Shown piece by piece: positions 17,960-46,703 of a stretch of 49,721 bases of DNA (position 1 is its first letter; each line of letters starts with the position of its first letter). Origin of the DNA: Psammoneis japonica (lineage: Eukaryota); NCBI GenBank assembly GCA_008632985.1, contig QPGO01000345.1, positions 1-49,721 of the forward strand, given 5' to 3'. The notes under the pieces are model-generated. The model saw nothing but the letters and a program-made list of their open reading frames with translations, was not told where the DNA came from and made no database searches. Both the position numbers and the translations under genes were made by a program.

Positions 17960-18746
17960 ATGGTTGATGATGTTGGTGTGAGAAAATTGGAAATTCAAAT
18001 GACAAGTGCTGAATCACGTGAAGAAATTGGAAAGTGGCAACACTCATTTGCAATCCAAACTGAAGCAAAAAAAGGAGGAATGGAGCAAAGAAGAAGCTGC
18101 GACAATTTCCATTTGCTCTTGCCTTGTCAAATGCTTAAAAACAAGACTGGAGCACACATGTCCCTACATTGTAACGCTGATGGCGAAACAGTTGAATGAG
18201 TTGGCAACGATGATTTTGGAGGCCATTCTTGTGGGGACAAATCATGCCACTCTTGGACCATTGGAACGGACCGCCATTGGAGCTGTCTGCGCATCAACAG
18301 AGTTATTTCTCTTGACAGATGAAAGCCAAGATTGTGCAGACTTGTGAGAATTCTTGGAAGACTGCATGAGGGAACTAAATGTGCTTGCATCCAGCAACAT
18401 TTTAACTTCACCACAGTCTCTTGTGAATGGTGACACAGCTGTTGCAATGTCTGCAGCAGCCATGTCGTTGGGTGGAGCTGTGCTGAGCTCAATGCAGCCT
18501 GCAGCAAAAGGAGCGGCTGCTTTTGTTCCCAACAATCCAGTGACGCAGTTTGCCAACAGCATGTTTTCATCAACCGCACCCAACACAGCACCCGGCACAA
18601 GTCCGAGTGACTGCAAAGCCACTCCACCAGACACAAAGGATCTTCCACCCTTCCCGAGTGACATCAAACAGCCATGGGATGAAAATGACAAGTTGAAAAG
18701 AGAGCCTGTCCCTGCCATGATGCTGCGACACTTGCATTTGTCATGA
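17960..18746 (+). pseudogene. COQ9: Ubiquinone biosynthesis protein COQ9 pseudogene (hypermutated copy)
   Basis: LKTRLEHTCPYI...ERTAIGAVCASTELFLLTDESQDCADL*EFLEDCMREL matches the COQ9 C-terminal pattern R..L..IY.STEL..L.D.S.D..DTW.FL..R. It has an in-frame stop and Y->C changes. Confidence 0.7.
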
Positions 18747-18750
18747 TCCT

Positions 18751-19720: not shown

Positions 19721-20239
19721 AATGCCCCCCACACCTGCTTGTCTCAACCACACCTGTGCCCTCCTTTCCAGCTCCATCACATCTCTTGGCTCTTGTGCCC
19801 GTCATTCACCTTGCCCCCCCCCCTGGCACCACACTCAATCATCAATCACCCCAGTGCCAAGACCCCACTTGTGCTTCTGGCTCTGGCTCGCTCCTCTCCC
19901 TTTTGCTCACACTCACCCTTTCCTTCGTTGACCCCGCTGCTGGCCCCAAAGCAGCTGCTGGATTTTGTTCCCCATCCAACATGCCATGCATCTGGTCCTC
20001 AGAATTTGCCCCCAGCTTCTCATCTGACAAGGCTGCTTCCTTTGCCAAGAGGACCTTTTTTGCCCTCCTGCAGCTCAACTTGCTTCTGATGAACAAACTC
20101 AAAGTGTGCTCTTGTGCTTTTGCTGATGATGCCCTGTCCCTCCTGTCACCCACCTCCTCTCTGCTGAGGACATTTGCTGCAACTTTTCATCATTTTGAGG
20201 ATCATTTTAAGTCCAGTCAAATCTCTTCCACCGGGCCTT

Positions 20240-21140
20240 GCATTTTGCCAACATGTCATTGTTTGCAAAGCTTGAGTGCCAAAATTGTCAAGATTGGCTT
20301 GCCCTTCCCATGGACTGAGATCCTGCTCTTGTTTGGCATTCAACAACTCATTTTGCTTGATGGCATGTCATCTCGTGAGGTGGCACAGGTGGTGTTGCCA
20401 GTCAAGTCTGGAGGTCAGGGCATGTCAAATGCATGTCTCTGGCCTGGATTCCATGTTGCTCCTGTGTTTCTGACTGTGGGGAGTTGCCTGTTTGCTTGAC
20501 CCATCAGGACACAGCTGTTGAGACAGACAGCAGGAGCACTTGTCTGCAAAGTGGCAAAAGCTTGCCAAGCAGATCATGCAGTTGATGGAACTTGGGGTTT
20601 GGGGCTCCATTGCACCATCAATGTGGTGCAGCAAGTCTTCACTTGCAGGGCGTGTTGATTTGGCATGCAGTTGACTCACAAGTTCTTTTGTTGTCTTGAC
20701 AGCGCATCTCCCCTTTTTCTTTCTGGGGTGGCTGTCCACCCCAAAAATGGGAAAAAGCTGGAGCGCCATCTTTTGTGGCACTCTTGAGGCAATGTTGCCC
20801 TGTGCAACCAGTTTCTGTGTCAACTGCTGACATTGGTGTGCAGCAATCCTTGTTTGTGCACAAGCCAGTCAATGGACTGCAATGACTGCAGTCGCATTTG
20901 AAGCATTGTTGCATGCTTTCATGTTGTCATTTCTGTTTTTGCACCACACTGCTGCTCTCTTTCTTTCAGATGTCATCTCTCAAGAGTTTCTTTCTTGTCT
21001 GGGGCCCACGGTGTGGTGTTTGGTGCTGCATGTCCCAAGGTTTGTGGCTGGCATGTGCACAGGACCACTCAGGCACGGATCGCCTCCTGTGTGTTTTTTG
21101 TGGATTCATTGCACCCTGACTTGCAATGACACACTGTAAA
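20240..21140 (+). repeat. Hypermutated copy of the repeat at 22450-23385
   Basis: Collinear with 22450-23385, for example gtcaatggactgcaatg vs gtcaatagactacgatg, and ccctgtgcaaccagtttctgtgt vs ccctacgcaaccgatttctatat. Confidence 0.9.
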
Positions 21141-21289
21141 ATGCACATGTCCAAAGTTGCTTCTGGCATTGATTGTTCAATGGGCCAGCCCAAGAGGCTG
21201 TGGGACAAGGTTGGTGCACACCTGGAGCTGAGGACACTGCAAGGCCACTCTCTTCCACCCTTTTGTCATTCTTGTAAAATGACACAGCA

Positions 21290-21560
21290 GCACTTGCATT
21301 GTTGCCAGTTTTTTTGCTTGTGTGGGGTGGACTCCAATCACATTGTCAAAGTCTGCCTTGGTTGCTCCCATCTTGACAGCTGCCACAACACCTTGCAGCC
21401 ACATTGTTTCTCCGGCTTGATCTGTTGCCAGCAGAAGAACTCCGGCCATCTTGTCTCAGTGTCAGTTGCTGTCTGAATGAAGACAATTTGATGTGGTGTG
21501 CATTTCTGACTTTGGAAAGGAGTGCATCATTGGTCAAAATTTAGTCATGCATGCTGTCAC
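21290..21560 (-). pseudogene. Glutathione-reductase-like C-terminal (dimerisation domain) fragment
   Basis: [40 protein letters not shown] matches the GR signature [27 protein letters not shown]. Confidence 0.75.
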
Positions 21561-22291
21561 ATTTTTGAGCATCCTCTTCTGCATGCCCGACAGATGCAGT
21601 TGCTGCAAACACCCCACAGATTCTTCAACATTGCAAACCCACTCAAATCAAAGAAATGACATGACTCTGTTGAAAGCTCTTGTTCTTGTGCAAGATTGAT
21701 GTGGCCACAAAGCCAAGACTTGCACCCTGTTGCTGTTTCAGTTTCTTGGGTTTTGATTTCTTCATCCAAGAACTCTGATGGGATCTTCGATGCTTTCTTT
21801 CGAAACCCTGACAAGTCATGTGTTGCTGTTGGATTGGAGTTGCCACTGTCGTTCACATCCATCTTTGCTGTCATGGCGATCGATCAACACTGCAAACTGC
21901 AACTGCGGTGCAGTGTGAACTGTCGGCATGTTTGATGTTTGAGCTGCTTCGAAGTGTGATGACCTCGATCTCCAAATGGGCTTGCGCTCGCTCGCTCGCT
22001 CGGCGGCAGTTTTCTGCGTCTGTACTTGCGTACGGCTACCGTTGACGAGTTTGGTGGCGGCGGCGGCGGTTTTTGCTTTTTCTAAGTACGGTTACCGTGA
22101 AGCGTACGTAGGAATTCGTAATATTTTTGAAAGTACCAAGATCTCACGAATGTTCTACATACGAAGTGATGGTATCGATTATACAAACATACACAAAAAT
22201 GATAGTGATTGAGAAAATTGGCAACGGTCACGACACAAACCAAAACTCTCGAACGCTTTTTTCTTTCGCGCTCTTCTTTCGCTCACAACTC

Positions 22292-22587
22292 GTCGTCTCG
22301 CACGATGTGTTTGTTGTTTGCCAAGCAGGAACGCAGGCGATCGCCCAGGATGGCTCACCCTTCCTGTGGATAATAGAAAGTCTTCTCTTGCTTGGCAGTT
22401 ATACAACTCATTTTGCTTGATGGCGTGTTGTCTCTCTTTTAAAACTAGTCGTCTCGCACGATGTGTTTGTTGTTTGCCAAGCAACGAATGCCGCGATCGC
22501 CGAGGATGGCTCGCCCTTCTTCTGGAATAGATTGCTCGCTCTTGTTTGGAATTCCACAAATCATTTTGCTTGATGGCGTGTTTTCTC
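22292..22587. repeat. Two-copy tandem repeat, ~150 bp unit
   Basis: gtcgtctcgcacgatgtgtttgttgtttgccaagca...tcattttgcttgatggcgtgtt occurs at ~22292 and ~22448. Confidence 0.85.
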
Positions 22588-23385
22588 AATCGGCGGCGTA
22601 GGTGTTGCCAGTTAAGTCCAGAGGTCGGGGCAAATCGAATGCGTCTCTCCGGCCTTGAGTCCATGTCACTCTCGTGTCTTTGAGCGTAGGAAGTTGCCTG
22701 TTCGCTTGACCCGTCAGGTCACGGCTGTTGAAACAGACAGCAGCGTTCGTCTGTGAAGCAGCAAAAGCTTGCCAAGCAGATCATACCGTTGACGGAACAC
22801 AGGTTTGGGGTTCTGTCGTGTCATTGACATGATGCGGTAAGTCTTCACTCGTAGGGAGTGTTGATTTAGAACGCGGTTGACTCGCAAGTTTTCTTGCTGT
22901 CTCCGTAGTACGTCCCCCCTTTTTCTTTTTTTTGGGATGTTGATCCACCCCGAAAATAGGAAAAAGCTTGAGCGCTATCTTCTGATGGCGCTCTTGAGGC
23001 AACGTCACCCTACGCAACCGATTTCTATATCAACTTTTGACGTTGGTGTGTTTCAAATTTTGAAACACTCTTTGAAACTATTCCAATACAAGTAGAAAGA
23101 CTAAAAGTACAAGATAGCAATCTTTATTCTTGCGTAATGTATTCCGTACGTACGTCAATAGACTACGATGGCGGTCGTAGCGCTTGCGATGTCGTTGTTT
23201 CTGTTTTAGTACTACACCGCTCCCCTCTTTCTTTCAGATGGGGTCCACGCTGGGGTGGTCATTACGGGATGCCCCCAGGCTTGTCATCGATATGTGCTGG
23301 ACTATTGCGACGCTAATCGCCCGCTTCCCTCGGGGTTATGCGAGCCATCTCAATTACAAAGTAGCTAGCTACGATGCTCTGTAGA
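22450..23385 (+). repeat. Unmutated (TA/CG-retaining) copy of the repeat at 20240-21140, probably TE-derived
   Basis: Aligns to 20240-21140 with an extra AT-rich insert of ~65 bp at ~23051-23115. Its reading frames are broken and the family was not identified. Confidence 0.8.
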
Positions 23386-29499: not shown

Positions 29500-30027
29500 T
29501 GTCAAACACATTCAAACTGGCAGCACCTTTGTCAGTCAGGTTCCTTGATTGGAAAATAAGCAAAGTGTTTCTCCCCTCCAGAAGCCAGAAAGTTGGCAAC
29601 AACAACATCAATTCTCTTGCTGGTGATTGAAGCGACCCTCCCTGTGAACTTTTGGGCGCGGGGGGGGGGGGGGGGGGGGTCTCCAATTTTCCATTGCCTG
29701 TCATCTGTGGGTGGTGAAGGCCTGCTTGTGCTCTGCTCACCTTCTTGCTTTCCAGCCTCCAACTCTTCAGTGGCCCTTGCCTTGAATGACCTCTGCCTTT
29801 CTCACTGAACTGGTTTTTCTTCTGCTCAGCAACCAATCTGAGGCTGTGCTTCTGATCTGGGAGATGCTCTGAAAAAAGCACCACTCTCCCAGCCTGCGCC
29901 ATCATGAAAGACATTTCTGGCAACAGCTTGCCTTGTGCCAAGATTTTCAGTGGTGTCATTTCTGAAAAAATGACATGTTGACATCCCTCTCAAAGTTTGA
30001 GAAGTCTGGTGGGTGAGTTGACACTGC
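29500..30027 (+). repeat. Direct repeat copy 1 (~530 bp, partner at 32662-33231)
   Basis: tgtcaaacaca...ttccattgcctgtcatctgtg...gttgacactgc. The 3' ~340 bp are nearly identical to 32885-33231. Confidence 0.9.
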
Positions 30028-30249
30028 TCTCTCCAGCTGCTCTGAGGGGCCTGGGCCTGCAAGAGCCTCTTCCTCTTCCTCGCTCAAGAGCACTCTTTGT
30101 GCCCCAAAGGCCAGTCTCAAAGGGTTGAGCACAGTTTGGGTGGCTTGCTCAACTGGAGCTGTGGTGGCAGAGCAACCTCCAGGAAGAAGCGCACAAAAGC
30201 AAGAAGCATGGTTTGTGGTGACAGAGCAGCCTCTGTGAGGAGTGCAGAG

Positions 30250-31460
30250 CTGTGCAGTGGCCAGGTGTCAGCCAGCAGAAAAAGTCTCTTCTGACAAAGT
30301 GTTTGCAGAGAACCCTGGCGGCATGGTGTCAGTCAGCAGAAAAAGTCATTTTTGCCAAAGTGTTTGCAGTGCTGTCTTCTGAGCTTGCTTTCCACATCCC
30401 AAGGAACACTCAAAGCATTGAGCGCAGTTTGGGTGGTGGTTTGCTGGTGGAGTGTGGCTGTGGCACCAGAGCAAAATTTAGGCAGCCCATGCAGAGAGGC
30501 CCAGTGTCAAAGTGTTGGCCACAAGAAAAAGTCCCTTCTGCCAGACTTTTTGCACTCTCAGCTTCTGAGCCCACACTTTGCGCACCAATGTGCAACCTCA
30601 AAGGCTTGGGCACAGCTTGGGTGGGTTTCTTTTTGGCTGTGGTTGCACTGGCAGAGCAGCCTCTGAGTGTGCAGAGAACCCCAGTGACTGTGGTTGCACT
30701 GGCAGAGCAGCCTCTGAGTGTGCAGAGAACCCTGGTGAAAAAGTGTCAGCCAGCAGAAAAAGTCACTTCTGCCAAAGTGTTTGCAGTCTTGTCTTCTGAG
30801 CTTGCTTTCCGCATCCCAAGGAGCCATCTCAAAGGGCTGAGCATGGTTTGGGCAGTGGTTTGATGGAGTGTGACTGTGGTGCCAGTGCAAAATTTGGGCA
30901 GCCCATGCAGAGAGGCCCAGTGCGGTCAAAGTGTTGGCCACAAGAAAAAGTCACTTTTGCCAGACTGTTTGCACTCTCAGCTTCTGTGCCCACATTTTGC
31001 ATGCCAGTGTGCAACCTCAAAGGCTTGGGCGCAGTTTGGGTGGGTTTCTTGGCTGTGGTTGCACTGGCAGCAGAGCAGCCTCTGGGTGTGCAGAGAACCC
31101 TGGTGGCAAAGTGTGTCAGCCAGTGGAAAAAGTCACTTCTGCCAAAGTGTTTGCAGTCTCATCTTCTGAACTTGCTTTCCACATCCCCCAAGGAACACTC
31201 AAAGGGCTGAACACAGCTCAGGTTGGCTCTTTCTTGACTGTGGTTGTGGTGGTGGCAGAGCAGCCTCTGTGTGTGCAGAAATCTTGTGTGTGATGACCAG
31301 GTGTCAGCCAGTGGAAAAAGTTGCTTCCAACTGATGCAAATGGTTTGCAGCCCAAGCTTCTGAGCACACTCAGTCTGTCCCCAGGCACAATCTCAATTCA
31401 TTGAGGAGCAAGTGTTGGCCAGCAGCAGAAAAGCCCCTTCTGACAAATTGTCTGCACTCT
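30250..31460. repeat. Degenerate tandem array (~370-430 bp higher-order units with short subrepeats)
   Basis: Recurrent gtgtcagccagcagaaaaagtcacttctgccaaagtgtttgcagt, cagcccatgcagagaggcccagtg and ggttgcactggcagagcagcctctg. Confidence 0.85.
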
Positions 31461-32661
31461 CAGCTTCCTCCACACACCCAAAAGCACAAACTTCTTGAGG
31501 GTCATCTTCTTTTTTTTGGCTCAACATTGCCCCAGCCTGACTGCAGGTGAGTCAGACTTGATCTTTCTATCTGGACAATGGACACCCCAAGTCATCAGCT
31601 GGGAGTTCTGACCAACTCACTCTGGCCCAGGGGTGGCCTTAAAGAGCATTCATTGTGGTTGGCTTGGTCCATCCTCTGTTGTTTTTTTTTTGGCCTGACA
31701 TTGCCCCAGACCAAGAGCAACAAACAAATCAAACAGTTGTCAGCTGAGAGTTCTGGCTGGCTTGCTCACTGCGTGATCCAGAAGCAGACTTTCAAAGTCT
31801 GCCCCTTGTTGAAAGAATTCATTGCAGCTGCCTTCTTGACTCATCTGGAGTTGTTTTTTGGCCCAAAATTGTCCCACGCTGCCAGCTGAGGGGTCTGTCC
31901 AACTCACTGTGTTGTCCCTGGGGGGCTGACTTTGAGAGCATTCATTCTTGTGGTTGCCTTGGTGATGGACACCCCAAGTGCAACAAACTGACCATGCAGT
32001 TGTCAGCCAAGGGCTCCAGCCAATTTGCCAATTTGCTGTGACCCAGGGTTTGTGGGCTTTAAGAGCATTCATTGTGACTGCCTTGGTTCGTCCTGCGGTG
32101 TTGCTTGTTTTGGCTGTGTGATGACACAGCCCAACAGTGGATGCAACATGACATTCCCTCTTGCAAGTGTTGAGCACCTCAAGAGGCAATGAAGTTTGCT
32201 GACATGCAGCAGCTGCTTGCCTTGTTCTTTCCAACCAAGAAGCACATGCAGTTTTTGGAAAAATGGGAGAATTCAACCACACTTCCAATGTTCTGCAACA
32301 ACAGCAGATGGGACACATTGCACCAACAAATGCTGAGCTTTGGGACAGACAACCACAGGCTGGCCCTCAGAAAGGCTGGGAAAACAAGTGCTGCTGCTTA
32401 AGAGTCATCATCTTTGCACACTCATGCTCTGAGGCATCTTGCTTCTGCTGGGATTCTTTCATTCAAGTTTGGTCACAAAATGAACCCCAGGTGAGCTTTG
32501 CTTGATTTTTCTTCTTTCTGCTGGCAACCATCAACAACTTGCCAATTGGAGCATGCAAGTGATGTCACTCCTCCACACATCAAGCACAAAAAGACCAGCA
32601 GTCTCATCAACTTCAAATGTTTCAACAGCTTCTTTGTGCAGCCATTGACCTCCTCTTTTTG

Positions 32662-33231
32662 TGTCAAACACATGCAAGCTGGCAGCACCTGTGTTGGCTG
32701 GGTTCATTGATTGGAGAACAAGCAAAGTGAGCTCCCCTCCAGAAGTCAAAAAGTCAGCAACAATGTTGTCAATTCTGGTGCAGGTGAGCTGGCCCTCTTT
32801 GTGAACTTTTGGGTGGAGAATGTTGTCCAAGATGGAGTCATTTCAGCTGCCTGTCCTTTTTGTGATCTGATTTCCAAGACACTCTTTTCCATTGCCTGTC
32901 ATCTGTGTGGGTGGTGAAGGCCTGCTTGTGCTCTGCTCACCTTCTTGCTTTCCAGCCTCCAACTCTTCAGTGGCCCTTGCCTTGAATGACCTCTGCCTTT
33001 CTTGCTGAGCTGGTCTTTCTTCTGCTCAGCAACCAATCTGAGGCTGTGCTTCTGATCTGGGAGATGCTCTGAAAAAAGCACCATTCTCCCAGCCTGTGCC
33101 ATCATGAAAGACATTTCTGGCAACAGCATGCCTTGTGCCAAGATTTTCAGTGGTGTCATTTCTGAAAAAATGACATGTTGACATCCCTCTCAAAGTTTGA
33201 GAAGTGAGTCTGGTGGGTGAGTTGACACTGC
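32662..33231 (+). repeat. Direct repeat copy 2 (partner at 29500-30027)
   Basis: Near-identical minus-strand ORFs 29492..29959 and 32899..33159 (MTPLKILAQG.LLPEMSF...). Confidence 0.9.
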
Positions 33232-35905
33232 CATCATGACACAGTTCCTGATGACAAGATTTGTTTGCTTGTGATGCTCTTTCTGGAAAAATGTTCTGCT
33301 GGCATCCCTTTTGCAGTTTGAAAAGTCTGACAGGAGGTGAGTCAAGACCCCTTCTCTCACTGGCACTCCAAGGGAGGATCCACAGGTCCCTCATCTTCCT
33401 CAGCCAAATGAGCAAAGTCAGCGGCAGTGTGTGCCCTGTCTCTCTTCTTGACACTCTGGCCACCATTGCCCATGGGGGCAGTGGCTTGGGTGGAGGGCTC
33501 CCCTTTTTGCAGAGCCTGGGCATGCCCTCTGGTTCTGGCACCTTTGTCTGCATCTGGCCAGCTGGGATGTTGTCACAATGTGGTTTGTGTTTGCCTCTCA
33601 CAAACAATGCAGGAGTGCCAGGCTGAATTGCACACTTTTGACAACTGCAAGAACACTCACCTGTCTGCGCCAGCTGCACATTTTCTGTGCTTGCCCACAA
33701 CGTGCACCACCCTGTCATCCCTTTGAGCAAACCCACCACAGATCACCTTGTGGCAGCAAGTCAAGAGCTCTGAACAGCAGCAAAATGGGTTGTCACCACC
33801 CTTTTCACATGGCATGAGATGGAGTGTCTTGGGCTGTGGGAGGTCTGGGACAAGGAGCGCTCTTCTCCTGCATGTTGCAGATGGCCTGGCCATCAGGTCT
33901 GATGGGGGGGGGGGGGGGGCAGTGGCGGGTCTCCTGCTCTAACAGCTTCTGCCATTTGACAGAGATGGGAGGTCTTGGACTGCAGATCTGAGGCAAGGAG
34001 TGTTTGCGTGTTGAAGAAGACCCTGGCCACATCTGAGAGGGGGTGGCACAGAGGGTCTTGCCCTGCTTGAACAGCTCTGTTTCTGCCATCTTGTTCAAGC
34101 CAAGAGCTGGGTGGCACAGCAGTGATTGGTGTGTTGTGAGACCAGCCAGTTGGCAATGTTGATGAGAGAGCAGCAAAAAATGTGGTTGCATTGTGGGCCA
34201 AAAAGCAACAACAACAAAGAGTGCTGACAATGGGATGGCACCAGCACGCCCCTTGCAGACGCATTGAGGGAAAACAAGCTGCAATGCTGGTTGCACACAC
34301 CAGTTGTTCAAACACATGTCACAATCGGTTTTTGATTGACAACACATTTTTGGAAGTGAATGTGCACACATTAAAATGCAGACAAGCAAAATTTCAAATT
34401 GCCAAAATTTTGAACACAAATTTGTTTGTCCTTGGAAATGCAACACCACAATTTTGACCCAAGAAAACTCATCCAAAGCACAACAACCAAACCAATCATC
34501 ACAATCCAAGAAGCAACAACACCATGGCCTTGTGATGCATTGTCAGGCCACAGATCCAGGAGGGCACTGCTTGACTTGCTTCAGCAAGTTCATTGTGTTG
34601 TTGTCATTGCTGCTGCAGCTGTTGAATCTAATTCTTTGTGGCGTGCCTTTCAATGAGCACAGGAGAGAGCACGCAATGATGCACGGTGCAGCAAACCCCA
34701 CTGCCAACAACATTGCCACTGACAGGAGTGCAGGAACCCAAAAAATGGAAGAAGGGGTGAGCACAGTTTGGTGTTGTCATTGCCATCATTCCAGCCATTG
34801 AATCCAATCATTTCATTTTTGCATGCTTTTCAACCATGCATGTCAAAGGACGCAGAGAGCGACAACAGCCTGGAGGCTTCTTTGTCACATGGCGCAGTGC
34901 ACCCCAATGCCAACAATGTTGCCACTGGCAGGAATGGTTGAACCCAAGAAGCAGCAGAGTCCTTCATGGCAGGGGCAGTGAATGGATGTTGGGGTGAAGG
35001 GTGAAGCAAACTGGCTTGATTTTTCTTGACACACATGCACACATGTGTGCATGTCCTTTTCCAAGTGTCCTCAATGCTCAACAGCTCTGCTTTTTGCACT
35101 TCAGCAGAGACATCACAATTGACCACAAACTGGAACATTTGGCAAGTCATCCTCAGAACAGCTCTCTTTTCCTTTTCTGGTGACTCACACCAATTGTTTT
35201 TCCCTCTTGCATGCACTGCCACGGAGCATCCAATGAGGTGCAAAAGAAGAGAGCGTGCAAAACCACCATTCTTGCAGCAAGGGCCACAACAAATCCTTTG
35301 TGAACAAGTCTCAGGATGATGGTGCATGCTGCAAGACAGAGACACAGGAAGAGGCTTGACGATTGAAAGTTTTCTTTTTGCATTGACGATCACAAGAAAC
35401 TGTGTGGTGGAGCGAGTGCTGTGGAACTTCAGCTCCACCAATGTGTGATGACCCAGTTTGTTTGATTGCATCTCAATTGATCCTCTGTTGATGTCATGGT
35501 TGTCAGTGCTGCAGCATGCAAATGCATTGCACCGCAGTTGAGAGTGATGCTGTGCCAGATGCATGGTCCACAGGAACAGAGGAGAGCACTGATTCCTGGT
35601 GTTCCAGAAGCGGGCCGTCCCCCAGAAGATTGGAGGAACCCTCAAACCCAGAAATGTGAGACAGCAACTTGGCACCCAGGAACAAAAACCAGCAACATCC
35701 AAGAAGGACCACCCAGAAATTCACCTGGAGAAAGGTGAAAAATCCAGCAATGTGACAAGCAAAACCCCACCTCCCCAGTGATCTCCTCCAGAAAACACGC
35801 CATGTGGCATCCAAAGTCATGCACAATGAAGTGTGCTCAGGAAATCCAGAAACTCCAAGGACATCATTTCTGGAACTCTCGCGTGCAGTGCAGCCACTGG
35901 ACGAG

Positions 35906-35907
<2 letters not shown>

Positions 35908-35938
<31 letters not shown>
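35908..35938. repeat. (GA)n microsatellite
   Basis: About 15 GA units. Confidence 0.95.
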
Positions 35939-35939
<1 letters not shown>

Positions 35940-36749
35940 AGCAGCACCTGGCATTGTGGAGCAGCAGCCACTTCCTCCAGCAAGTGACAATTGCACTGCT
36001 TCTGCGTAAATTGTCTTGAAAGGAAAAGCATCCATGACCCACAACCTGCCACCATCAAAACATCACATGGAAATGCTGCGGCAACAAGATGATCACTCGT
36101 GCCATCAAATTCCACTTTCTGTGATGATGGCATTCCATGCCATGGACCCTCCTCCACCAAATCCAAGTGTCTGCTCAGTTGGTGCGCTGGTGCAGGTGGT
36201 GCCGGAACACTGCACGGGACAACCTGACAGCAAAGGTGGGGTCAGCTTTGTCACTGAATTCAACACTGCCAATGGCCCAACGAATGTGTGGCACACAGGT
36301 GACAAAAGTCACAACCCCTCTCACTTCAAGAAGAAGACCAACTTGAAGAGAAAGAGCTTTCAAAAAGTCACAACCCCTCTCACTTTAAGAAGAAGACCAA
36401 CTTGAACTTTGCTGAACAGCAATGCTTGCAATGCAGTGTTTGAACATGTCAAGGAGAGTGTCATCCATTGCACACAGAAAGAGTGTGTGCAAGGCATGCA
36501 TTTGACAAGATCTTCAACAGACTGAAACGCAAGGACTGTGGTTCTGAGAGACCTGCCCTGGGCATGTTCGCAATGACAGCACCAGCGGACACACAGCTGA
36601 AGATTGTCAAACCAAGATGGAAGAGAGCAAGCAAGTGGCAAGACACCAAAAGAGTTGAAAACCAGCACAAAGCAGAGCCACACAAGCACAATGACAAGCA
36701 CACTTGCCAAGATCTCAGATGACTGCTGTGCCAAGCAAATGAAGCAGAG

Positions 36750-38330
36750 AGTGCAGGGTGACCCCAGTCACCCAAACACAATGCAGGGATGATCAAATCA
36801 ACTTGTTGATGCTGATCCAGTCCCTGTTGGAGCATCTAGATTTGGGCTTTAGAGAACCGGGAAGAGATGAATTTGAAGAAAAAAGACACGCAGCATCCCA
36901 ACCCCAACATTTTCCTCAACATGAGGTCAACACCCATCCAAACACCTGCCAAGTCCCTGAAGAGCATGCTGAGTGCAAGGGAACAAGAGAACAAGTTGCC
37001 GAGCAGTTGCCTGTCAGGATTCAAGCATCAGAGGAATGGCACTGCAAGGGAGGGTCTAAGAGACAGAGAACGTCAGCAGACAGATTTGTTTCCAATGCCA
37101 AGGAGTGCAAGGGCAAAGGTGCTGCAATGGTCCACAGAATGCTGAAAGAGACAGAATTCAAGACATGGGTGACATTCCTGTTTGCAGAGAACAGCAACGA
37201 ACATTGCTGCAAGAGCTTGGAGAAGAGCTTCTTGAGAGACTGCAGCCTGGGCAAGGACACACCACCTGTCCAAAGACATGACTGGAGGACACTGGACAAG
37301 GCAATGGACGTGCTGCTGAACCATCCTAAAGACAAAATCCTTCCAAGCAACACAATGAGAGGAACAACAAGCACACAAGCAACAACAACAGCAAAATTGA
37401 GAACAAGAGTGAGAGGTCTGGCATTCCAAAGGGCCAGAGCCATGCCCAGAAGAGCAGCCAGAGCAACACTGCAGTGTGTTGCTGCAGCAACCAACCAAAT
37501 CACAAGCTCAAAGATGGAAATCAGGGGACAGAGCCATGTGCAGACATGAGGTGATGACCACCCATTGGCAGACAGTGCCGACACAAGCATTGAGCCACCA
37601 GATCCAACCAATCAACCCGCTCCAGCTGAGGCAAGAGTGCTGCATGGCAAGGCTTGCAACAGGAAAACAAGAGGCCAGAGATGAGCATGAGAACCAAGCC
37701 AACCACAGAAATCAAAGTGGATGAAATCATCCTCAACAATGGCTCCACAACCTCCTGCATGGCAGCAAGCCAGAGACTGGTGCACAATGTGCAACAAGCA
37801 AAGACCAAGGTTGATCTGTTTGTGGGCACAGCAGTGGACACTTTGGATGAAGACTGCACCATGTCTGGATGGGGGGACATGAAGCCGGGGTCACAGAACA
37901 TGACAGCAAGCATCCCCAGTTCAAAAGATGAGAAGAGCAAGCACTGTGTCACATGCAACAACTGAGTGGCATGGATGGCTGAGTTCTGATTGCCAGAGGA
38001 CAAGAAGACTGGCAAACAAGTTGTGGTGTTCAAAGTGAATGACATCAGACCATGTGCCTTTGCACAAAGCAAGAAGTTGTTTGACCACACAAAACATCTC
38101 CAAGAAGCAAGTTGCACACAAGCATGCTGTTTTGCAGAACAAGAACAAGAGAACAAGAAGCACAGGAGTGCAAGGCTCAGGCTGTGCTGCAAAGCTGGAG
38201 CACCCAGTGTGAGGGATTTCAAGCCATTTTTGCATTCAAGCCACCAGGTGAAGAACAGGATGATGGCCATTTGACAGATGATGTTGAAGAAGAAACAAGA
38301 GAAAATGGAAATGTTCTCTGCTGTTGCTGG
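36750..38330 (+). mobile_element. Old degenerate Ty1/copia remnant (gag-protease region) of a different diatom lineage
   Basis: RTLDKAMDVLLNH (gag), EIILNNGSTTS...LVHNVQQAKTKVDL (protease, cf. ILLDNGST), EQENKK..ARLRLCCKAGAPSVRDFK (cf. AR.LY..LG.PS..DFK). No LTRs found. Confidence 0.55.
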
Positions 38331-39493
38331 TTGCAACTAGCAGCCCTGGGTTTGTGGCAAGGATTGTGGACAAAGAGATGCCAGTTGATGATGAAAGCAC
38401 ATGAGGACATCAAACTGTGGAACCCTGAAGCACTTGAGGCCTCATCCAGCTCCAGGTGACGCACAATCCACCATGCAAAAGGGTGCAGTTTAGCATGTCA
38501 AACTCCTTCAAATTTGATTTTTTTGAAAATCGAAATGCAAGTGTGCACACAAACACACGAGCTTTGTGTGCACTTGCCCTTCGATCATTTTTTGAGCGAG
38601 TTCATTGTGCCAAGTGCACAAATGGCCAGTGATGGGAATCAAACCTCCTCTCTGTGCATCACCTGCTGGAGCTGGAACAGGCCTTGAGCACATGTCCCCA
38701 CCATCATGCCAATGTTTCCATCCACAACAATTTGAGAGCATTCATCTGAGACTGTGCAACATGCTTGGAAGGCACGCAAGAGGGAGTTTTGGCAAATTGT
38801 TGGAAGCTGAGTCACGAGGCAAGGAAAATTTGGACAACGCACAAAGATGGCAAAGAGAACATGAAAGATGAGCATGCCACTGGATTGACAGGCAATGAGG
38901 AGCTGCAAGAATTGGCCCTTTAAAAGAGCTGCATTGATGGCTTGCACAAGACATCAAAGATCGGCTGCCCTGCTCCTGTGGCATGGACAAACATGAGTGT
39001 GTGCCCCCCTCATGTGACTCAATGCCAGCCACTGTCCTGAAGCTGTGCTGAGTTGTTGCAGGTTTCTTGCAAGCAGTGCAGACAGCGCCATTTGTGCAAC
39101 ACTGTCAAAGCTTGTGCTGCTCTTCCACCGTGGTGTCAACCGCACAAACCCTGCACACAGGTGGCTCTGTCACAGTGTTGAGTTCTTCGACTTGAATCCT
39201 GAGATGGTCAGCAGCTGGGTTGCAAACCTGGTTGATGGTTGATGGTTCACACAGTGAAGAGAGATTTCATCATGCTCGTGTGGAACATTTTTTGCAGAGC
39301 TTGGCCCAGCAACATGGTCAGCCACTCTCCTGATGATGTGCGGCACGCGCCAGCTTGCAAGTCTGGGGCCAGCGCAACATTGGCATGAGTGGCGGGAGTG
39401 TGCTGGAGCAGCGCCCAGATCATGGGAAATGCAAAGAACCCAGACACACTGAAGAAATGATGCCATCGCTCCTGACATGGCTCATTTGGCAAT

Positions 39494-39582
39494 TCTTTGT
39501 GAGCAAGATTTCATTGTCACCAGTTTCTCTCACCTCTCAGCTCTTTGTGAGCAAGATTTCATTGTCACCAGTTTCTCTCACC
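39494..39582. repeat. 48-bp tandem duplication, second unit interrupted by the copia insertion
   Basis: Unit tctttgtgagcaagatttcattgtcaccagtttctctcacctctcagc starts at 39494 and again at 39542. The second unit resumes as tctcagc at 46709 after the element. Confidence 0.92.
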
Positions 39583-39858
39583 TGACAGGATTTGAACAGG
39601 ATTTGGATGCGCGCGAAGTGTCGCGCGCTGTTTAGTTTACCGCGCACAGTTTTGTGTGCTTTAGTTCCGCGCGTTCACGCGCGATGTAGTTTGCTTTCGA
39701 GCCACAAGGCTCACAAGAATAATAACAGTAGCCCGATTATACCGACTTACACGTCTTTCGGCTCCTGTAACGGTCTCTGAGCGGAGACTCATCTGCTATT
39801 TAGACAGCAGTAAGGAGTTATTGTTTGAATTCTTGCCATTTGCCTTCATTTTCTATCA
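39583..39858 (+). repeat. 5' LTR (276 bp)
   Basis: TGACAGG...TTCTATCA, 270/276 identical to the 3' LTR. Confidence 0.97.
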
Positions 39859-39873
39859 GATTAACAGTCTTGC
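39859..39873 (+). promoter_or_regulatory. Putative primer-binding site complementary to the tRNA-Asn(GUU) anticodon arm
   Basis: GATTAACAGTC directly after the LTR is the reverse complement of GACTGTTAATC. There is no canonical TGG start. Confidence 0.55.
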
Positions 39874-40804
39874 TCATTGTCAACCCATTGAGCAACCGCC
39901 ATCGTCGTCGTTGATTTACCGACGACGCTATTTCAATTCTGCGTGGACCTCCGTATATATTCTACATACATCGGCAAGTCTACGCGCGTTCAATACCAGG
40001 CATCGGCAGGAATTTAACGTCACCGTCAAGTCTCCTTACCGCTGGATATCTGGATTGATTATACTACCTTCGGTCGCTGAAGACTTATATTCAACGGTCA
40101 TATCCAAGTCTATCCTTGATCAACATCCCTTGATATACCTATTCCTCGGTTAACGGTCAAGAACCCTACACATTCAAGGATCTTAGTCGCTGAAGACATA
40201 TATATATATACATGTACATGTCTTCACGGCCAAGAACCTTTATCCACTCTTCGGACTGCGGTTTTGCTGCCACTCTACAAGCACACCGAGTCCATTGCAC
40301 CTGATCTACCCCGGACTGCTGGTGCTCTACAGTTCCACTGGGTCCACGAGGACGACTGTGAGAGCAAGTGGCCGTGATTGCAGCCTGCGTTGGGGCGAGG
40401 GTGCTTTCCCGCGTTTGTTCGTTCGTCCACAGCGCCCCAACGCCTGCGTCAACTGGCCAGCCTGATCGGGAAATCCAACCGACATAAAAACAAGAACGGT
40501 TCGGGGGTCTTGTCCACCTCCAGTCAGCTTGCCTGCAGGGGTTTACAACCCGCTGCTCCGCTCGCAAGCAACCCAAAGCGCCGCTGGCTGCGGGTTCGGA
40601 CGTGCCGGCACAACTCTGCGGACCGGACAGGAAGTTTAGCACTTGACAACGAACGGGACAACAAAGCCCGGCGACTTCTGATTTTAAGATGGTTCAAGAT
40701 TTCAAGTCAAGTCTGTTTCAAGTCAAGTCCATTCTCGCCCAAGTTTCGAGTCCACCTTCGCTTCCCAACCAGAATTGATTGTCCTGACACCACTTTTGTC
40801 TGCC

Positions 40805-41930
40805 ATGGTTCTCACTCGTCAGCAACAAACCGATGGTTTCGAGCATGTTGTTGGAACCGTGCTTGCCCAAGGTGCTGGGAGTCCTCTTCGTTTGGCTTTG
40901 GCCCAAGACGGCACGGACTCGCATCAGGAACTGTTCACGTTCATGCCGCCCCAAATCGACTGGCTTGAGCACGACAACGGCACCAATGCAATCCCTTTGC
41001 CCCGTGGTTACAAGAACATGTTAGCAGCGCTGGTTAGTCTGCACATTGTCAAAGCACACAAAGGTCTTGACGTTGCCAACGACTCCTCTTTGTTCACGCA
41101 TGATGAGTTCCTTGCCTGCCGCCTCAGCCCCGACTGCATGTCTTCTGTGTCCATCGGCAGCTCACCCCTTGCACCTCCACATGTCACCAACCCGACCAAG
41201 GCACGCGACCTGGTGCGAGACTTCAAGCGAGGCATCAAGCGTGATCCCACCGCTTTCACGGCTCTCAAATCCGACAAGCAGTGGCACACTTGGCACACCT
41301 CACTTGTGGCACAAGCCCGTGCCCAAGACGTCGAGTGCATTCTAGACTCATCGTACAAACCGACCAGCCCCGAAGACAAACTGCTCTTTGCTGAACAGCA
41401 AAAGTGCATGTTCGCCGTCTTCGAACGCATCCTTCTCACCGACAAGGGCAAGGCTCTCATTCGCGAAAATGTGGGGTCTTCTGACGCACAGACCGTCTGC
41501 CGCTCCTTGTCTGAGTGCGCGCTTGCCTCCACCCGCGCATCTGTCGAGTCCTCCACCCTGCTCACGCACCTCACCACCGCACGTCTTGGTGATGGCACTT
41601 GGAAAGGTCCGACCCACGGGTTCATCCTTCATTGGCAAGATCAGTTGCGCAAGTGCGAGGCACTCATCCCCCGCCAGTGACCACTTCTCTGAAGGACAGA
41701 AGCGCGTCATGCTCGAGAATGCCGTGCACCCTGTCGAGGAACTCCGTGCTGTCAAGAACCAAGCTGATCAGCATCGTACACAGAGTGGCAAGAGCCTCAC
41801 ATGCGATCAATGCTGTGGCTTGCTCCTCTCCGCGGCAGCTCAGCACGACAGCACGTTTCAACCCAAGACGACACCCAGAGCTCCCCGACGCGCCACACAT
41901 GCACACGACGTCCCCACTCCGAGGAACCGT
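40805..41930 (+). pseudogene. gag: copia gag, frameshifted at ~41670
   Basis: DFKRGIKRDPTAF..LK.DKQW..W...AQARAQDV..ILD, TDKGKALIR, FILHWQDQLR, MLENAV. Confidence 0.85.
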
Positions 41931-44900
41931 CCGACGATGTGTTCTACGACATTGACAGCGACGTTGACGTCCTTCAAGCCAATGCTGCCCACACCCGCGG
42001 TCCCAGCCTCGCCGGTGTCCAATGGAGACGTCTCCCTCCCGACCACCAACGGCTCTGGGATTCGTTGCCCGATTCCTCCAAGGCGATCATCCTTGAGCAT
42101 TCTCGTCCGCCTCCCCGCAACCCGCGAGCCAGCAACTGCCATGAGTCTGTTGCGGCCAACCTTCACGACCAACACCTTGGGAGTGACAGTGATGTCAACT
42201 TGTCCAACACGACTCCTGCTGACTGTGGTGACTCCGCTGCACATGTGGACGCCACTTCGGACAATCCCATCCTGGCGCACCTCACCAAGCGCAAGCCACT
42301 GCCACCCAGTGATCTGCAACGTCTGTTGTCACCCAACCAAGCCCCCAATGCCAGTCGACCGGGGCCATCCGCCGCTTCCTCTGCCCCGCCAGCTCCTGCA
42401 GATGACACAGAACTTGACGGCCGCACTTGCCGCCGCGTCAACAACCACAATGTCATTTGCTCTGCCTCTGCTCATCGCTCCACACGCACTGGCGCTCTAG
42501 TCGATCGTGGGGCCAACGGCGGCATTGCTGGCGACGACGTTCGCGTCATTGCACGCACCTCTCGCCAAGTCGACGTTCAGGGCATTGACGATCACCAATT
42601 GGTGGACATCCCCATTGTCACCGCTGGTGCCGTCATTGAGACCCAGCGTGGTCCCGTCATCGCCATCCTCCATCAGTGCGCATGCACGGGAAAGGGCAAG
42701 ACCATCCATTCCTGCGGCCAGCTCGAATGGCACAAACAGGATGTCAACGATCGCTCTGTCAAGGTGCCCAACGGCTTGCAACGCATTGCCACTCCTGATG
42801 GCTGTGTCATCCCCATTGACATCAAGGCTGGCCTGCCTTGTGTTGCCATGCGACCTTACACTGATGCCGAATGGGACACCCTGCCCCATGTCATCCTCAC
42901 CGGTGATGACACATGGGACCCTTCCGTCCTCGATCACTCTGTCACTGACGACGACCAGTGGTGCGACGCGATCTCTGACCTGCAGGACGATCCCACCGCC
43001 AACCCATTTGACGAATGCGGCAACTGCCGTCACCGTGTCGTTGTCAACGAGACCATCTTGTCCGCTTCCTTGTCTGCCGATCACGCGTCCGCCCTCGATG
43101 ATCACCTCATTCTGAACGACGACGTGTTCTCCGAGTGTCATCTACATGCGATTGACCCCCAGGGCGATGACGTTCCACCTCCGGAGCGCACTGCACAGCC
43201 CAAGGACCCCCCCTTCGAGTCTCTTCGGCCTCACTTTGGCTTCCCACCCACCGATGCGGTCCGTCGCACTTTTGACTGCACCACGCAGTGCGCCCGCATG
43301 CCCGCCGGCACACACCTTCGCAAGGCCTACAAATCACCCAACCCCGCCCTTGATGTGCACCGCCGCAACGAGCCCATCGCCACTGACACCGTTTGTGCCG
43401 ACACCCCGGCCGTCGACCATGGTTGCACCAGCGCCCAACTGTTTGTTGGCACCGAGTCTACCGTCACTGACGTCTACGGCACTGAGACGGACAAAGAGTT
43501 TGTCAACACACTCGAGGATCAGATCCGTGAACGTGGTGCCCCATCCAAACTCATTAGCGACCGTGCTCAAGTTGAGATCAGCAACAAAGTGCTCGGGATC
43601 CTACGCGCCCTCTTCATCTCCAGCTGGCAAAGTGAGCCTCACCAGCAACACCAAAACTTTGCCGAGCGTCGATGCCAGACCGTGAAGCGCATGGCGAACA
43701 CTGTCATGGACCGTTTTGGTTCGCCCGCCCACACATGGCTGCTGGCGCTCATGCACGTGTGCTTCACACTCAACCACACAGCGTCCCCACGTCTCCACTG
43801 GCGCACGCCCCTCGAGACTCTCACTGGATCCACCCCGGACATCAGCCCATTGCTTCGCTTTCACTGGTGGGAACCAGTGTGCTTCCACCTCGATGACTCT
43901 GATTGGCCGTCCGAATCCCGTGAGTTGCGTGGACGCTTCGTTGGCATTGCTGAGCACGTCGGCCACCAGATGACCTTCAAGATCCCATCTGACGAGACTC
44001 AGAAGATCCTCTGCCGGTCCAACGTTCGCTCCGCTGCCCCCGATCCTGCCGTTCGAAACCTGCGTCTTGATCCTCCTGATGGGGAGCCACCTGAACCCAT
44101 CATCAAATCTCGCCATGATGACAACCCCATCGATTCTCCTGATGGGGAGGGTCAGGACACCCAAGATGCCAGTTTTCGATCCGCAAGACATCATTGGACG
44201 TACCTTCCTCATGCAGCCACAAGAGGACGGACAACGCCACAGAGCTCGCATCGTCAAGGCCGTCGAAGACCACGAATGGAAAGTGAACGGCAATCCCGAG
44301 CTCACTAAGTTCGTCTGCTCTGTCAACAATGACGAACCACGAGGAAGTCCTTGCCCACAATGACATCATGAATCACATTGAGCAAGAAGACGAAGACACC
44401 ACCATTTGGAAATTTCGACGCATCGCATCACACGAAGGACCTCTGAAGCCTCACGACCCAACCTGGAAAGGCTCAAGCTACAACATCATGCTTGAATGGG
44501 AAAGTGGGGAGATCACGTCCGAGCCTCTTGCCATCATCGCCAAGGACGACCCCGTCACCTGTGCCATCTGTGCACGAGAGAACGGACTCCTCGACACGGA
44601 TGGCTGGAAGCGGTTCCGCACTGTCGCGAGGCGCCAAAAGAAGCCATTTCGCATGGCCAACCAAGCCAAGCTTCGCTCCTTCCGCACTGCACCTCGCCAC
44701 AAGTGCGGATGCGAAGTTCCCCGGAACTGCAAACACGCCATGTCACTAGACGAACGCAACGGCAACCGCAAGTGGGGAGACGCAACTAATCTCGAGATGG
44801 ACCAACTCGACGAATGCAAAGTCTTCCATGACTGCGGGCCCTTCAAGTCTTCCACTCCTCCTGCGGGACACAAGAAGATCCGAGTGCACCTGGTGCACGA

Positions 44901-46427
44901 CGTGAAACACGACGGTCGCCACAAGGCACGACTCGCAGCCGACGGGCACCTCACGGACGCCACCTGTCGACAGTGTCTGCTCCGGAGTGGTCTCCCTCCG
45001 TGGCCTTCGGCTGATGATTTTCCTGGCCGAACTCAACGAGCTGGAGACATGGGCCACCGACATTGGCAATGCCTGCCTTGAAGCCACCACCAAGGAGAAG
45101 CTTTACATTGCAGCTGGACCCGAATTTGGCAAACTCGAAGGACACATCCTTGTCATCCACAAGGCACTGCATGGACTGCGCAGCTCCGGTCTCCGCTGGC
45201 ACGAGCGCTTCGCCGACTGCCTGCAAGCTGAAGGCTTCTTCCCCTGCCGCGCCGAACCCGACATTTGGATGCGCAGGAACGGCGACCACTGTGAACACAT
45301 TGCCGTTTATGTGGATGACCTCGCCATTGCCATGAAGGACCCTCAATCTTTCGTCGACACTCTCACGGAAAAGTGCAAGTTCAAGCTCAAGGGTGCGGGA
45401 CCCATTGAGTTCCATCTGGGTTGCAACTTTTCCCGGGACCCCGACGGAACCTTGTGCCTGTCTCCGCGCAAGTACATCGAGCGCATGGTCGACAGTTGCG
45501 CCCGACTGTTTGGGGAGAAACCCACCACCAACGCCCTGTCACCTCCAGAGAAGGGTGACCACCCCGAACTGGACACTTCCAAACTGCTGGGACCCGATGG
45601 CATTCACAAGTTCCAGTCTCTTGTTGGTTCACTCCAATGGGCAGTGTCCCTTGGTCGAATTGACATTGCCACGGCTGTCATGTCACTCTCTAGCTTCCGA
45701 GCTGCGCCCCGTCAAGGCCACTTGGATCGTGCCAAACGCGTCTGTGGGTGCCTCTCCAAGATGCGACACGGTGCTCTCCGCGTTCGCACGGAAGAGCCCG
45801 ACTGTTCGGATCTCCCTGCTCCGGCCTGTGAATGGATGCATTCCGTGTGTGGTGAAGCAGAAGAGATGATCCCGAAGGACGCTCCACCGCCCCTTGGCAA
45901 GTTCGTCACTGCCACCCACTACGTCGATGCAAACTTGCACCATTGCATGCTCACCGGACGCTCTGTCATGGGAATGCTCCACTTCCTCAACAAATTCCCG
46001 GCTGATTGGTTCTCCAAGAAACAAGCCACCGTGGAGACTGCAACCTGCGGATCTGAATTTGTTGCCGCAAGGAATTGTGTTGAGCAGATTGTCGACCTGC
46101 GCATCACCCTGCGCCACCTTGGCGTCCCGATCCGCAATGTCAGTTGCATGTTCGGTGACAACAAGTCGGTTGTAGACAGTGCCACCATCCCGCACTCCAA
46201 GTTACACAAGCAACACACCGCACCATCGTTCCACCGTGTGCGTGAGGCAATTGCCTCTGGTTGCCTTGAGTTCCACTTCATCGAAGGCTCCCGCAACCCT
46301 GCTGACATTCTCAGCAAGCATTGGGGTTGCTCCCAAATCTGGGACCTTCTCCGCCCCCTCATGTTCTGGAACTTCATTCCATCCGAAGTCGAATCTGTTT
46401 CTGTGGCTCCTCAAGCAAACTGGGGAG
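41930..46427 (+). pseudogene. pol: copia pol (protease, integrase, RT, RNase H) with several frameshifts and Tyr->Cys/His changes
   Basis: LVDRGANGG (PR), IATDTV / LISDRAQ / SEPHQQHQNFAER (IN DDE), DGRHKARL, DIGNACLEA, KALHGLRSSG, IAVYVDDL (RT), YVDAN, GSEFVA, FGDNKSV, NPADILSK (RNase H). Frame changes at ~44170, ~44335 and ~44960. Confidence 0.93.
46417..46427 (+). promoter_or_regulatory. Short polypurine tract
   Basis: AAACTGGGGAG immediately 5' of the 3' LTR. Confidence 0.65.
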
Positions 46428-46703
46428 TGACAGGATTTGAACAGGATTTGGATGCGCGCGAAGTGTCGCGCGCTGTTTAGTTTACCGCGCACAGTTTTGT
46501 GTGCTTTAGTTCCGCGCGTTCACGCGCGATGCAGTTTGCTTTCGAGCCACAAGGCTCACAAGAATGATGACAGTGGCCCGATTGTACCGACTTACACGTC
46601 TTTCGGCTCCTGTAACGGTCTCTGAGCGGAGACTCATCTGCTATTTAGACAGCAGTAAGGAGTTGTTGTTTGAATTCTTGCCATTTGCCTTCATTTTCTA
46701 TCA
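46428..46703 (+). repeat. 3' LTR (276 bp)
   Basis: Matches 39583-39858 except at 6 positions and is followed by TSD TCACC. Confidence 0.97.

Follow-up and report, generated by a model that had tools for sequence, protein, structure and literature searches.

The two long terminal repeats (LTRs) of a retrotransposon of Psammoneis japonica differ from one another only at TpA dinucleotides, and the interior of the same element, together with three further multi-kilobase blocks of the DNA in which it lies, is almost devoid of TpA. The DNA in question is a stretch of 49,721 bp (assembly GCA_008632985.1, contig QPGO01000345.1, positions 1-49,721 of the forward strand), which was analysed as a whole and is referred to here as the window. 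The element is an LTR retrotransposon of the Ty1/copia type, which inserted recently and whose family is very abundant. We propose that a regional process acting after integration converted TpA to TpG or CpA, emptied the interior of the copia element, reached its 3' LTR and cleared the three other blocks, and that it is likely to be an inactivating defence; we regard this account as highly probable. Its signature matches the TpA to TpG/CpA hypermutation of integrated nucleocytoplasmic large DNA virus (NCLDV) and virophage DNA that the main text of a recent preprint describes in Bigelowiella natans (Mettrop et al., bioRxiv 10.64898/2026.01.13.699255), here in a distant lineage and on transposons.

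The LTR pair was found with a repeat finder and the two copies were then compared directly, base by base. Exactly six mismatches and no insertions or deletions were present over 276 bp, and at each mismatch the 5' LTR has TA where the 3' LTR has TG or CA (Table 1). The sequence-only reading that preceded this analysis had described six of six differences as TA to TG or CA, none of them at CpG and none elsewhere, with 6 of 16 TpA and none of about 21 CpG changed. This was exact on recount: the pair differs at 6/16 TpA, 0/21 CpG and 0/244 positions outside TpA, and the dinucleotide counts of the 5' and 3' LTRs are 16 vs 10 for TA, 21 vs 21 for CG, 18 vs 23 for TG and 17 vs 18 for CA. The probability that all six differences would be of the TpA type is 2.4e-6 for random transitions, as (32/276)^6, and 3.3e-9 if every substitution is equally likely. 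An inflation of LTR-based age had also been anticipated, and is borne out by an apparent divergence of 2.2% (6/276) against 0/244 outside TpA. Since reverse transcription makes both LTRs of such an element from one template, any difference between them dates from the very end of cDNA synthesis or from later, and cannot be due to RNA editing.

A comparison of two sequences cannot polarise the differences between them and, read in the other direction, as CpA to TpA and TpG to TpA, the six differences are the classical signature of repeat-induced point mutation (RIP). Under this explanation the 3' LTR would be ancestral and the 5' LTR would have suffered C to T changes at CpA and G to A changes at TpG; one gene of the window, moreover, carries DUF6604, a family known mostly from Ascomycota. 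The polarity of the interior, however, is opposite. The frame encoding the reverse transcriptase (RT) and RNase H part of pol was aligned with 60 of 120 listed relatives, giving 341 conserved columns (its codons were analysed without the first 20 residues, which are out of frame), and the protease-integrase (PR-INT) frame with 80 of 150 listed relatives. Seventeen columns with a Tyr consensus in the RT-RNase H part read 10 Cys, 3 His, 1 Phe and 3 Tyr in the window copy, and nine in the PR-INT part read 6 Cys, 1 His, 1 Phe and 1 Tyr; in all, Cys or His codons now stand in 20 of the 26 places where the family conserves Tyr. The RT open reading frame (ORF) differs from the consensus at 43 places, 20 of which need more than one transition to be undone; the 23 that are undone by one transition comprise 14 TA to TG, 5 TA to CA, 4 CpG to TpG or CpA and no others. 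Tyr accounts for 0.7% of the residues in both frames, whereas 120 relatives average 4.6% and none of them falls below 2.25%. Together, the conversion of conserved Tyr codons and this spectrum of transitions argue, from the coding sequence, that TA was ancestral in the interior and that TG and CA are derived in the lineage of the window copy. It also speaks against RIP that the element and a host-type gene fragment in the second block have diatom relatives: the best relatives of the RT part are 65-69% identical and include one named Cylindrotheca fusiformis, and the closest named homologue of the fragment, which encodes part of the proteasome lid subunit Rpn9, is from Grammatophora oceanica.

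Other copies of the family were compared at 40 of 543 variable places, all outside the LTRs and corresponding to about 29 distinct sites. Fifteen of these sites vary between TA, TG and CA, about 6 are of the CpG type and 8 are of other kinds. In several, all three states occur: CA, TA and TG make up about 61%, 31% and 8% of the depth at 40690/1, and TG, CA and TA about 45%, 43% and 12% at 40659/60. TG and CA at one site are not interconvertible by one change, which argues for a TA ancestor that mutated independently on either strand in different copies, and which RIP, with TG or CA as its starting state, does not accommodate. At 41011, 42334 and 45546 the window has CA or TG and 90-100% of the depth is TA. 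All other depth at 45546 reads T, giving a Leu codon that matches the protein consensus, so two independent lines agree at this site.

Sliding dinucleotide counts across the window delimited the TpA-depleted blocks, the edges of which are sharp. Three blocks and the element interior total 29,411 of 49,721 bp, or 59% of the window, and hold 115 TpA (3.9/kb) against 828 (40.8/kb) in the rest. The loss of TpA is accompanied by a gain of its transition products, with a rho for TpG/CpA of 1.3-1.8 in the four blocks vs 1.15-1.18 outside. In the three non-copia blocks rho is 0.03-0.09 for TpA and 1.69-1.81 for TpG/CpA; the element interior, at 1.53/1.33 for TpG/CpA, falls under the second cut-off of the B. 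natans-type cluster criterion. RIP indices are reversed in the blocks, TpA/ApT being 0.02-0.11 and (CpA+TpG)/(ApC+GpT) about 2. Within the element, 53 TpA lie in 39583-40330, they are sparse from there to 46203, and 10/16 are kept in the 3' LTR. The 5' LTR adjoins the leader with its normal TpA density, depletion sets in as a step near 40330-40500, and the TpA-free tract tapers off at the 3' LTR.

CpG behaves differently in the two kinds of block. The three non-copia blocks are CpG-poor (rho 0.13-0.35 vs 0.98 elsewhere), whereas the copia interior, equally TpA-free, keeps its CpG (0.90); the old blocks carry a saturating CpG decay that the young copia interior does not. The CpG loss may mean that methylated CpG decayed in the ordinary way for longer, or it may be a second activity of the same system.

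The targets in the window include mobile DNA, namely the copia element and P-like transposase remnants, but also the host-type Rpn9 fragment that adjoins these remnants in the second block. The fragment is without its N-terminal 95 residues or so and without a PCI domain, and may be a piece of a gene that was captured or duplicated, not the working gene. In a comparison that leaves out P0248, a 154-amino-acid fragment, the columns with Tyr in at least 3 of 6 homologues read 4 His, 2 Cys, 2 Tyr, 1 Phe and 4 gaps in the window copy. The same block contains one member of an old pair of paralogues, 76.8% identical over 704 aligned bases, the other member of which lies just outside it and is unmutated. 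Where the outside copy has TpA (22 aligned sites) the block copy reads CA at 8, TG at 7 and something else at 7; where the outside copy has CpG (44 aligned sites) the block copy reads TG at 19, CA at 17, CpG at 2 and something else at 6. Changes in the reverse direction number 0 of the TpA type and 1 of the CpG type. That one paralogue only, the block copy, has lost its TpA argues for targeting by place and not by homology, although the duplication may have preceded or followed the mutation. Fungal RIP was rejected on the opposite polarity, the reversed indices and the single affected paralogue, and we consider it extremely improbable that the 5' LTR has been altered in this way, an outcome that the sequence-only reading had itself named as a refutation. 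The other claims of that reading fared well: a context-specific process acting on both strands after reverse transcription is supported by the Tyr codons, the polymorphism among copies, the block structure and the B. natans preprint, and the ancestral status of TA by the interior Tyr losses, the transitions in the RT ORF, the other copies and the TpA-free neighbourhood of the 3' LTR, which for the six LTR sites is indirect support.

The surviving TpA are not a random sample. When tetranucleotides were collapsed with their reverse complements and TpA in the blocks (n=115) was compared with TpA outside (n=828), the survival ratios were 0.47 for TTAA, 0.26 for CTAA, 0.19 for CTAG, 0.13 for GTAA and 0.095 for CTAC, and fell to 0.06 for ATAA, 0.05 for GTAC, 0.02 for ATAG, 0.013 for ATAT and 0 for ATAC. 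All six changed LTR sites belong to classes with a ratio of 0.095 or less, in which 6/9 sites are changed as against 0/7 in the resistant classes (p = 0.0105). The placing of the changed LTR sites in the most depleted tetranucleotide classes ties the LTR changes to the process that made the blocks. Both strands are affected, 45 inferred ancestral TpA along the element now being 30 TG and 15 CA; locally, TA was replaced by TG at each of four adjacent sites of the LTR (positions 138-156), all on one strand.

One further explanation is that single-stranded cDNA was edited during or just after reverse transcription, in the manner of APOBEC3 but on adenine, with I:T mismatches that resolved differently in each LTR. 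In the APOBEC3G gradients of retroviruses, double-stranded DNA forms earliest in the LTRs and just downstream of the primer-binding site, and a gradient of this sort would spare just these parts and resemble the spared 5' 750 bp of the element. Editing of the minus strand, however, gives only TA to CA on the plus strand, whereas TG is here twice as frequent as CA, and the onset of depletion is a step rather than a gradient. The same signature is found in the DNA-transposon block, in the fragment of a host gene and in a single member of the paralogue pair, which points to action on chromosomal DNA, and the main text of the preprint shows the signature arising in integrated double-stranded DNA viral regions. 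Editing of cDNA is thus very unlikely to account for the data. APOBEC3-type editing in the strict sense was also tried and rejected. APOBEC3 produces plus-strand G to A changes in a GG or GA context, or a TC context on the minus strand, before integration; here every LTR change lies at TpA and the following bases are mixed.

Another possibility is that modified TpA and CpG in silenced blocks were miscalled, TA and CG being read as TG or CA. Sharp blocks that lack both TA and CG and gain TG and CA would fit, and modified-base miscalls in long-read assemblies could produce such a loss. Contigs built from k-mers of one sequencing run (run X1, platform unrecorded), at a depth of about 55-80, nevertheless match the third TpA-free block at 30126-30666, 33904-34983, 35951-37463, 37434-38028 and 38506-39523, with 0-1 letters of difference, and normal flanks are matched equally well. 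Variants with TA, TG and CA are also read in this run at individual sites of the copia family. That run X1 reproduces the TpA-free blocks and at the same time distinguishes these variants argues against a consensus or base-calling artefact, as does the intact CpG of the element interior, from which TpA is gone. An artefact of assembly or sequencing is unlikely in general, and systematic miscalling of modified bases has hardly any probability in our view.

A different doubt concerns the LTRs alone: the process may be real, but the six differences may have come from ectopic gene conversion by another family copy, or from a mosaic of many copies made in assembly or polishing. The summed word depth of run X1 over the element is 65,000-163,000, vs about 55-80 (about 60) in flanking single-copy contigs; it is not a copy number, and it is the ground on which the family is called very abundant. 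Copies differ mainly at TA/TG/CA sites, so mixing them would yield differences of the kind seen. On the other hand, matching TCACC duplications at the two ends argue for one intact insertion, the LTRs show no differences outside TpA although the family varies at CpG and other sites too, and the run of four neighbouring changes lies on one strand. We consider conversion or mosaicism an unlikely source of the six differences, and we infer that they arose in place in the 3' LTR.

Several points nonetheless weigh against the regional process as we propose it, or limit its reach. The six LTR states rest on the assembly, and uniquely anchored contigs span none of the six sites, the nearest single-copy contig beginning at 46674. 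The variable places compared among copies (40 of 543) give no family state at these positions, and two exact LTR patterns had no match in metagenome contigs. The read check is not independent, the four runs consulted representing one sample and one study and perhaps being the assembly's own. The window copy itself may be an assembly mosaic of family members, given that the depth summed over the element exceeds the depth of the flanks 1000-2700-fold. At 40369/70 the window has TG where 94% of the depth is CA, and part of the interior depletion may have been inherited from progenitors that were already mutated. The 5' LTR and leader, with their 53 TpA, are untouched, which the proposed process does not account for, and strand-coherent tracts were not detected among the 45 sites of the element (19 runs vs 21 expected, p = 0.31). 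Finally, modification of thymine would leave the same sequence pattern as deamination of adenine.

What the data show is the spectrum of change, its direction within the interior, the arrangement in blocks, its visibility in the reads and its repeated, independent occurrence in different copies. With these points in mind, we suggest the following course of events. A copia element would have integrated recently into the chromosome, where a regional process would convert TpA to TpG or CpA, a change of A:T to G:C on either strand. The interior would have been nearly emptied of TpA and the 3' LTR reached, with 6/16 of its sites changed, the 5' LTR and a leader of about 470 bp being spared. The same process would have cleared TpA from the three other multi-kilobase blocks, at least one of which is a DNA transposon, and a chromatin mark or an RNA-guided mark may delimit the blocks. 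Its role is most likely the inactivation of foreign or mobile DNA, here by turning Tyr codons into Cys or His codons. As to chemistry, our leading guess, by analogy, is that adenine is deaminated to inosine in DNA by an ADAT2/TadA-like enzyme. The alternative chemistry is that the thymine of TpA is modified, for example by a TET/JBP-type hydroxylation, and then misrepaired or mispaired to give T to C. On either strand this has an outcome identical to that of adenine deamination, and in dinoflagellate DNA thymine modification does prefer TpA. Against it, tRNA adenosine deaminases naturally act on an A preceded by U, and the candidate enzyme put forward in the main text of the preprint is an ADAT2 homologue. 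Thymine modification is the less likely chemistry, to which we give a small chance.

In its broadest form, towards which we lean on balance, the proposal is of a defence found outside chlorarachniophytes, in a diatom-like stramenopile, that would be TpA-directed and probably adenine-deaminating. It would select its targets by genomic domain and not by homology, would act on retrotransposons and DNA transposons alike up to a near-complete loss of TpA, and would remove RTAY-type sites first and TTAA, CTAA and CTAG last.

The assignment of the element to Ty1/copia rests on several features. The LTR ends are TG...CA, a 5 bp target-site duplication is present, the RVT_2-type reverse transcriptase sits downstream of the integrase part, as in Ty1/copia, and a purine-rich run, GGGGAG, lies upstream of the 3' LTR. 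The RT part has 2321 relatives at E <= 0.001 among 7999 scored candidates. The 846-amino-acid frame has no Pfam match; its phmmer relatives belong to the same polyproteins as those of the RT part. Three single-base length differences from other copies shift the pol frame in the order 2>0>1>2. The insertion lies within a 48-bp tandem duplication (39481-39528 and 39529-39576, 88% alike), a third, partial copy of which is split by it (39481-39582, 46704-46717), and no more than about 100 bp separate it from where the 10-kb TpA-free block ends on the right. An intact sulfatase gene (47002-48843), for which no database match above 51% identity was found, adjoins the element; a sequenced and annotated reference such as B. 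natans should have yielded near-identical matches to it and to the copia, whose matches stop at 69%. From the protein relatives by themselves a diatom host is probable, both of the named closest ones being diatoms.

In TpA-free DNA, TGA is the sole remaining stop codon and spurious long ORFs appear in all six frames. The three non-copia blocks hold 68 ORFs of at least 110 amino acids, among which a Pfam scan found one clear match, the Rpn9 fragment, and one weak match (TNP-like). The weak Pfam signal of the transposase remnants is probably due to hypermutation. Three block ORFs were searched for in viral contigs and no relative was found, by a method that needs exact peptides and is ill-suited to mutated sequence. 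An internal repeat array, several units of which are 70-85% similar, occupies 30100-31470 of the third block; across it, contigs from run X1 are joined in many different combinations that skip 187-1098 bp, and this suggests that the array varies in length or has more copies elsewhere. In the middle of the same TpA- and CpG-free block, at 33906-33920, stands a run of about 15 G. Strong A/T skew occurs at 35500-38500 and 19500-22000 (A 160-175 vs T 77-83 per 500 bp, and the reverse) and exceeds what TpA loss on one strand would give. Between the first two blocks, the DUF6604 gene is an uninterrupted ORF of 923 amino acids (9357-12128, minus strand), which sits awkwardly with the diatom affinities of the other markers and could mean that the family ranges more widely than known or that the gene was transferred.

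Table 1. Positions of the LTR differences, the copia element, the TpA-depleted blocks and the other targets in the window.
Feature	Position	Strand	Details
5' LTR	39583..39858	+	276 bp, TG...CA ends, 16 TpA; taken as unmutated state
3' LTR	46428..46703	+	276 bp, 10 TpA remaining, six changed sites
LTR position 105	39687 T / 46532 C		TA in 5' LTR, CA in 3' LTR
LTR position 138	39721 A / 46566 G		TA in 5' LTR, TG in 3' LTR
LTR position 141	39724 A / 46569 G		TA in 5' LTR, TG in 3' LTR
LTR position 147	39730 A / 46575 G		TA in 5' LTR, TG in 3' LTR
LTR position 156	39739 A / 46584 G		TA in 5' LTR, TG in 3' LTR
LTR position 237	39820 A / 46665 G		TA in 5' LTR, TG in 3' LTR
Target-site duplication TCACC	left 39578..39582, right 46704-46708		5 bp
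Leader and start of internal region	39859..40330	+	normal TpA density; about 470 bp, spared
TpA-depleted interior	40331..46427	+	from dinucleotide counts
Element interior as counted	40500-46427		rho TpA 0.113, rho CpG 0.895; GC 58%
Protease-integrase part of pol	41768..44308	+	846-amino-acid open frame, 8025 phmmer relatives
Frame-shift zone	44150..44961	+	single-base length differences from other copies at 44150/1, 44337-9, 44960/1
RT-RNase H part of pol	44906..46480	+	Pfam RVT_2, E 3e-20
First block	5000..9000		rho TpA 0.089, rho CpG 0.354; TpA- and CpG-depleted
Second block	12500..22000		rho TpA 0.068, rho CpG 0.291; TpA- and CpG-depleted; transposase remnants and Rpn9 fragment
Third block	29500..39480		rho TpA 0.029, rho CpG 0.135; TpA- and CpG-depleted; ends about 100 bp before 5' LTR
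Rest of window			rho TpA 0.604, rho CpG 0.976
P-element/THAP9-like transposase remnants	15387-16709	-	parts in expected order
TNP-like RNase H N-terminal features	15858-16709	-	atlas score 0.92
TNP-like_GBD (GTP-binding insertion domain)	15387-15827	-	Pfam E 6e-4, below curated cut-off
Rpn9/PSMD13 proteasome lid subunit fragment	18962-19801	-	PSD13_N, E 1.3e-25
Block-internal paralogue	20259-20972		0 TpA, 5 CpG
Outside paralogue, unmutated	22470..23240	+	32 TpA, 50 CpG

If confirmed, these findings would provide a second, phylogenetically distant case of a mutational genome defence known from one 2026 preprint. TpA-specific A:T to G:C hypermutation would then be no curiosity of one alga, transposons would be among its targets besides integrated viruses, and the process would be able to saturate and to reshape more than half of a 50-kb region. 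By analogy, the data would suggest that a naturally occurring enzyme edits the adenine of TpA in DNA and, were the domain-directed reading true, that RIP has a widespread eukaryotic counterpart with the opposite chemistry. There are practical consequences as well. Dating by LTR divergence gives ages that are too old in such genomes; homology-based annotation of transposons fails, Pfam having missed the protease and integrase here and most block ORFs being without a match; and spurious long ORFs in TpA-free DNA are a trap for gene callers.

The process proposed here shares features with several known systems. Like ADAR hyper-editing, it changes A to G with a preference for U (here T) before the edited A; ADAR, a metazoan family, edits double-stranded RNA, whereas the differences between the two LTRs cannot be made in RNA. 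APOBEC3 editing of retroviral and LTR-element cDNA, which Knisbacher and Levanon are said to have treated in 2015, likewise leaves deaminase-type hypermutation fixed in integrated LTR elements, as clusters of one transition type. Unlike the work of APOBEC3, the changes here fall at TpA and on both strands, the LTRs differ and DNA other than retroelements is also affected. With fungal RIP it has in common a dinucleotide-specific transition hypermutation, transposons riddled with missense changes, compositionally distinct blocks and the appearance of a defence. It departs from RIP in its direction, A:T to G:C at TpA instead of C:G to T:A at CpA, so that GC rises and does not fall, in the inverted indices, and in affecting one of two paralogues.

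The closest parallel is with B. natans. In our full-text searches of the literature, TpA to TpG/CpA hypermutation in diatoms or in LTR elements was not found and the B. natans preprint was the sole report. According to its main text, 231 of 302 nuclear mutations in mutation-accumulation lines fell in two integrated viral regions, and 230 of the 231 were A to G or T to C, all on TpA, arising de novo as the lines grew clonally, at a rate per site and generation of about 1e-7 to 1e-6 (10.64898/2026.01.13.699255). The same source counts 124 clusters in the B. natans genome with depleted TpA and enriched CpA+TpG, as well as 324 coding sequences poor in TpA and enriched for RT and DDE domains, proposes an ADAT2 homologue as the enzyme and notes that a single-copy region was targeted (10.64898/2026.01.13.699255). 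Set against that account, the P. japonica window differs in its host, for which the closest named relatives are diatoms and the database contains no near-identical protein, and in its targets, here an LTR element of the copia type and a DNA transposon that is P-like; in the degree of depletion, which is near saturation (rho 0.03-0.11) as against 0.45 in the NCLDV region; and in the evidence, an LTR pair and family polymorphism in place of mutation-accumulation lines. In the older blocks here, CpG too has been changed to TpG/CpA to the point of saturation, and a bias of surviving TpA, with TTAA, CTAA and CTAG resistant, is seen here that the main text of the preprint does not describe. What the two have in common, as far as that main text goes, is the confinement of changes to TpA, their outcome as TpG or CpA on either strand, their extent over kilobase-scale regions, the long-term depletion of TpA with enrichment of CpA and TpG and, as the asymmetry of the LTRs suggests for P. 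japonica, action on integrated DNA.

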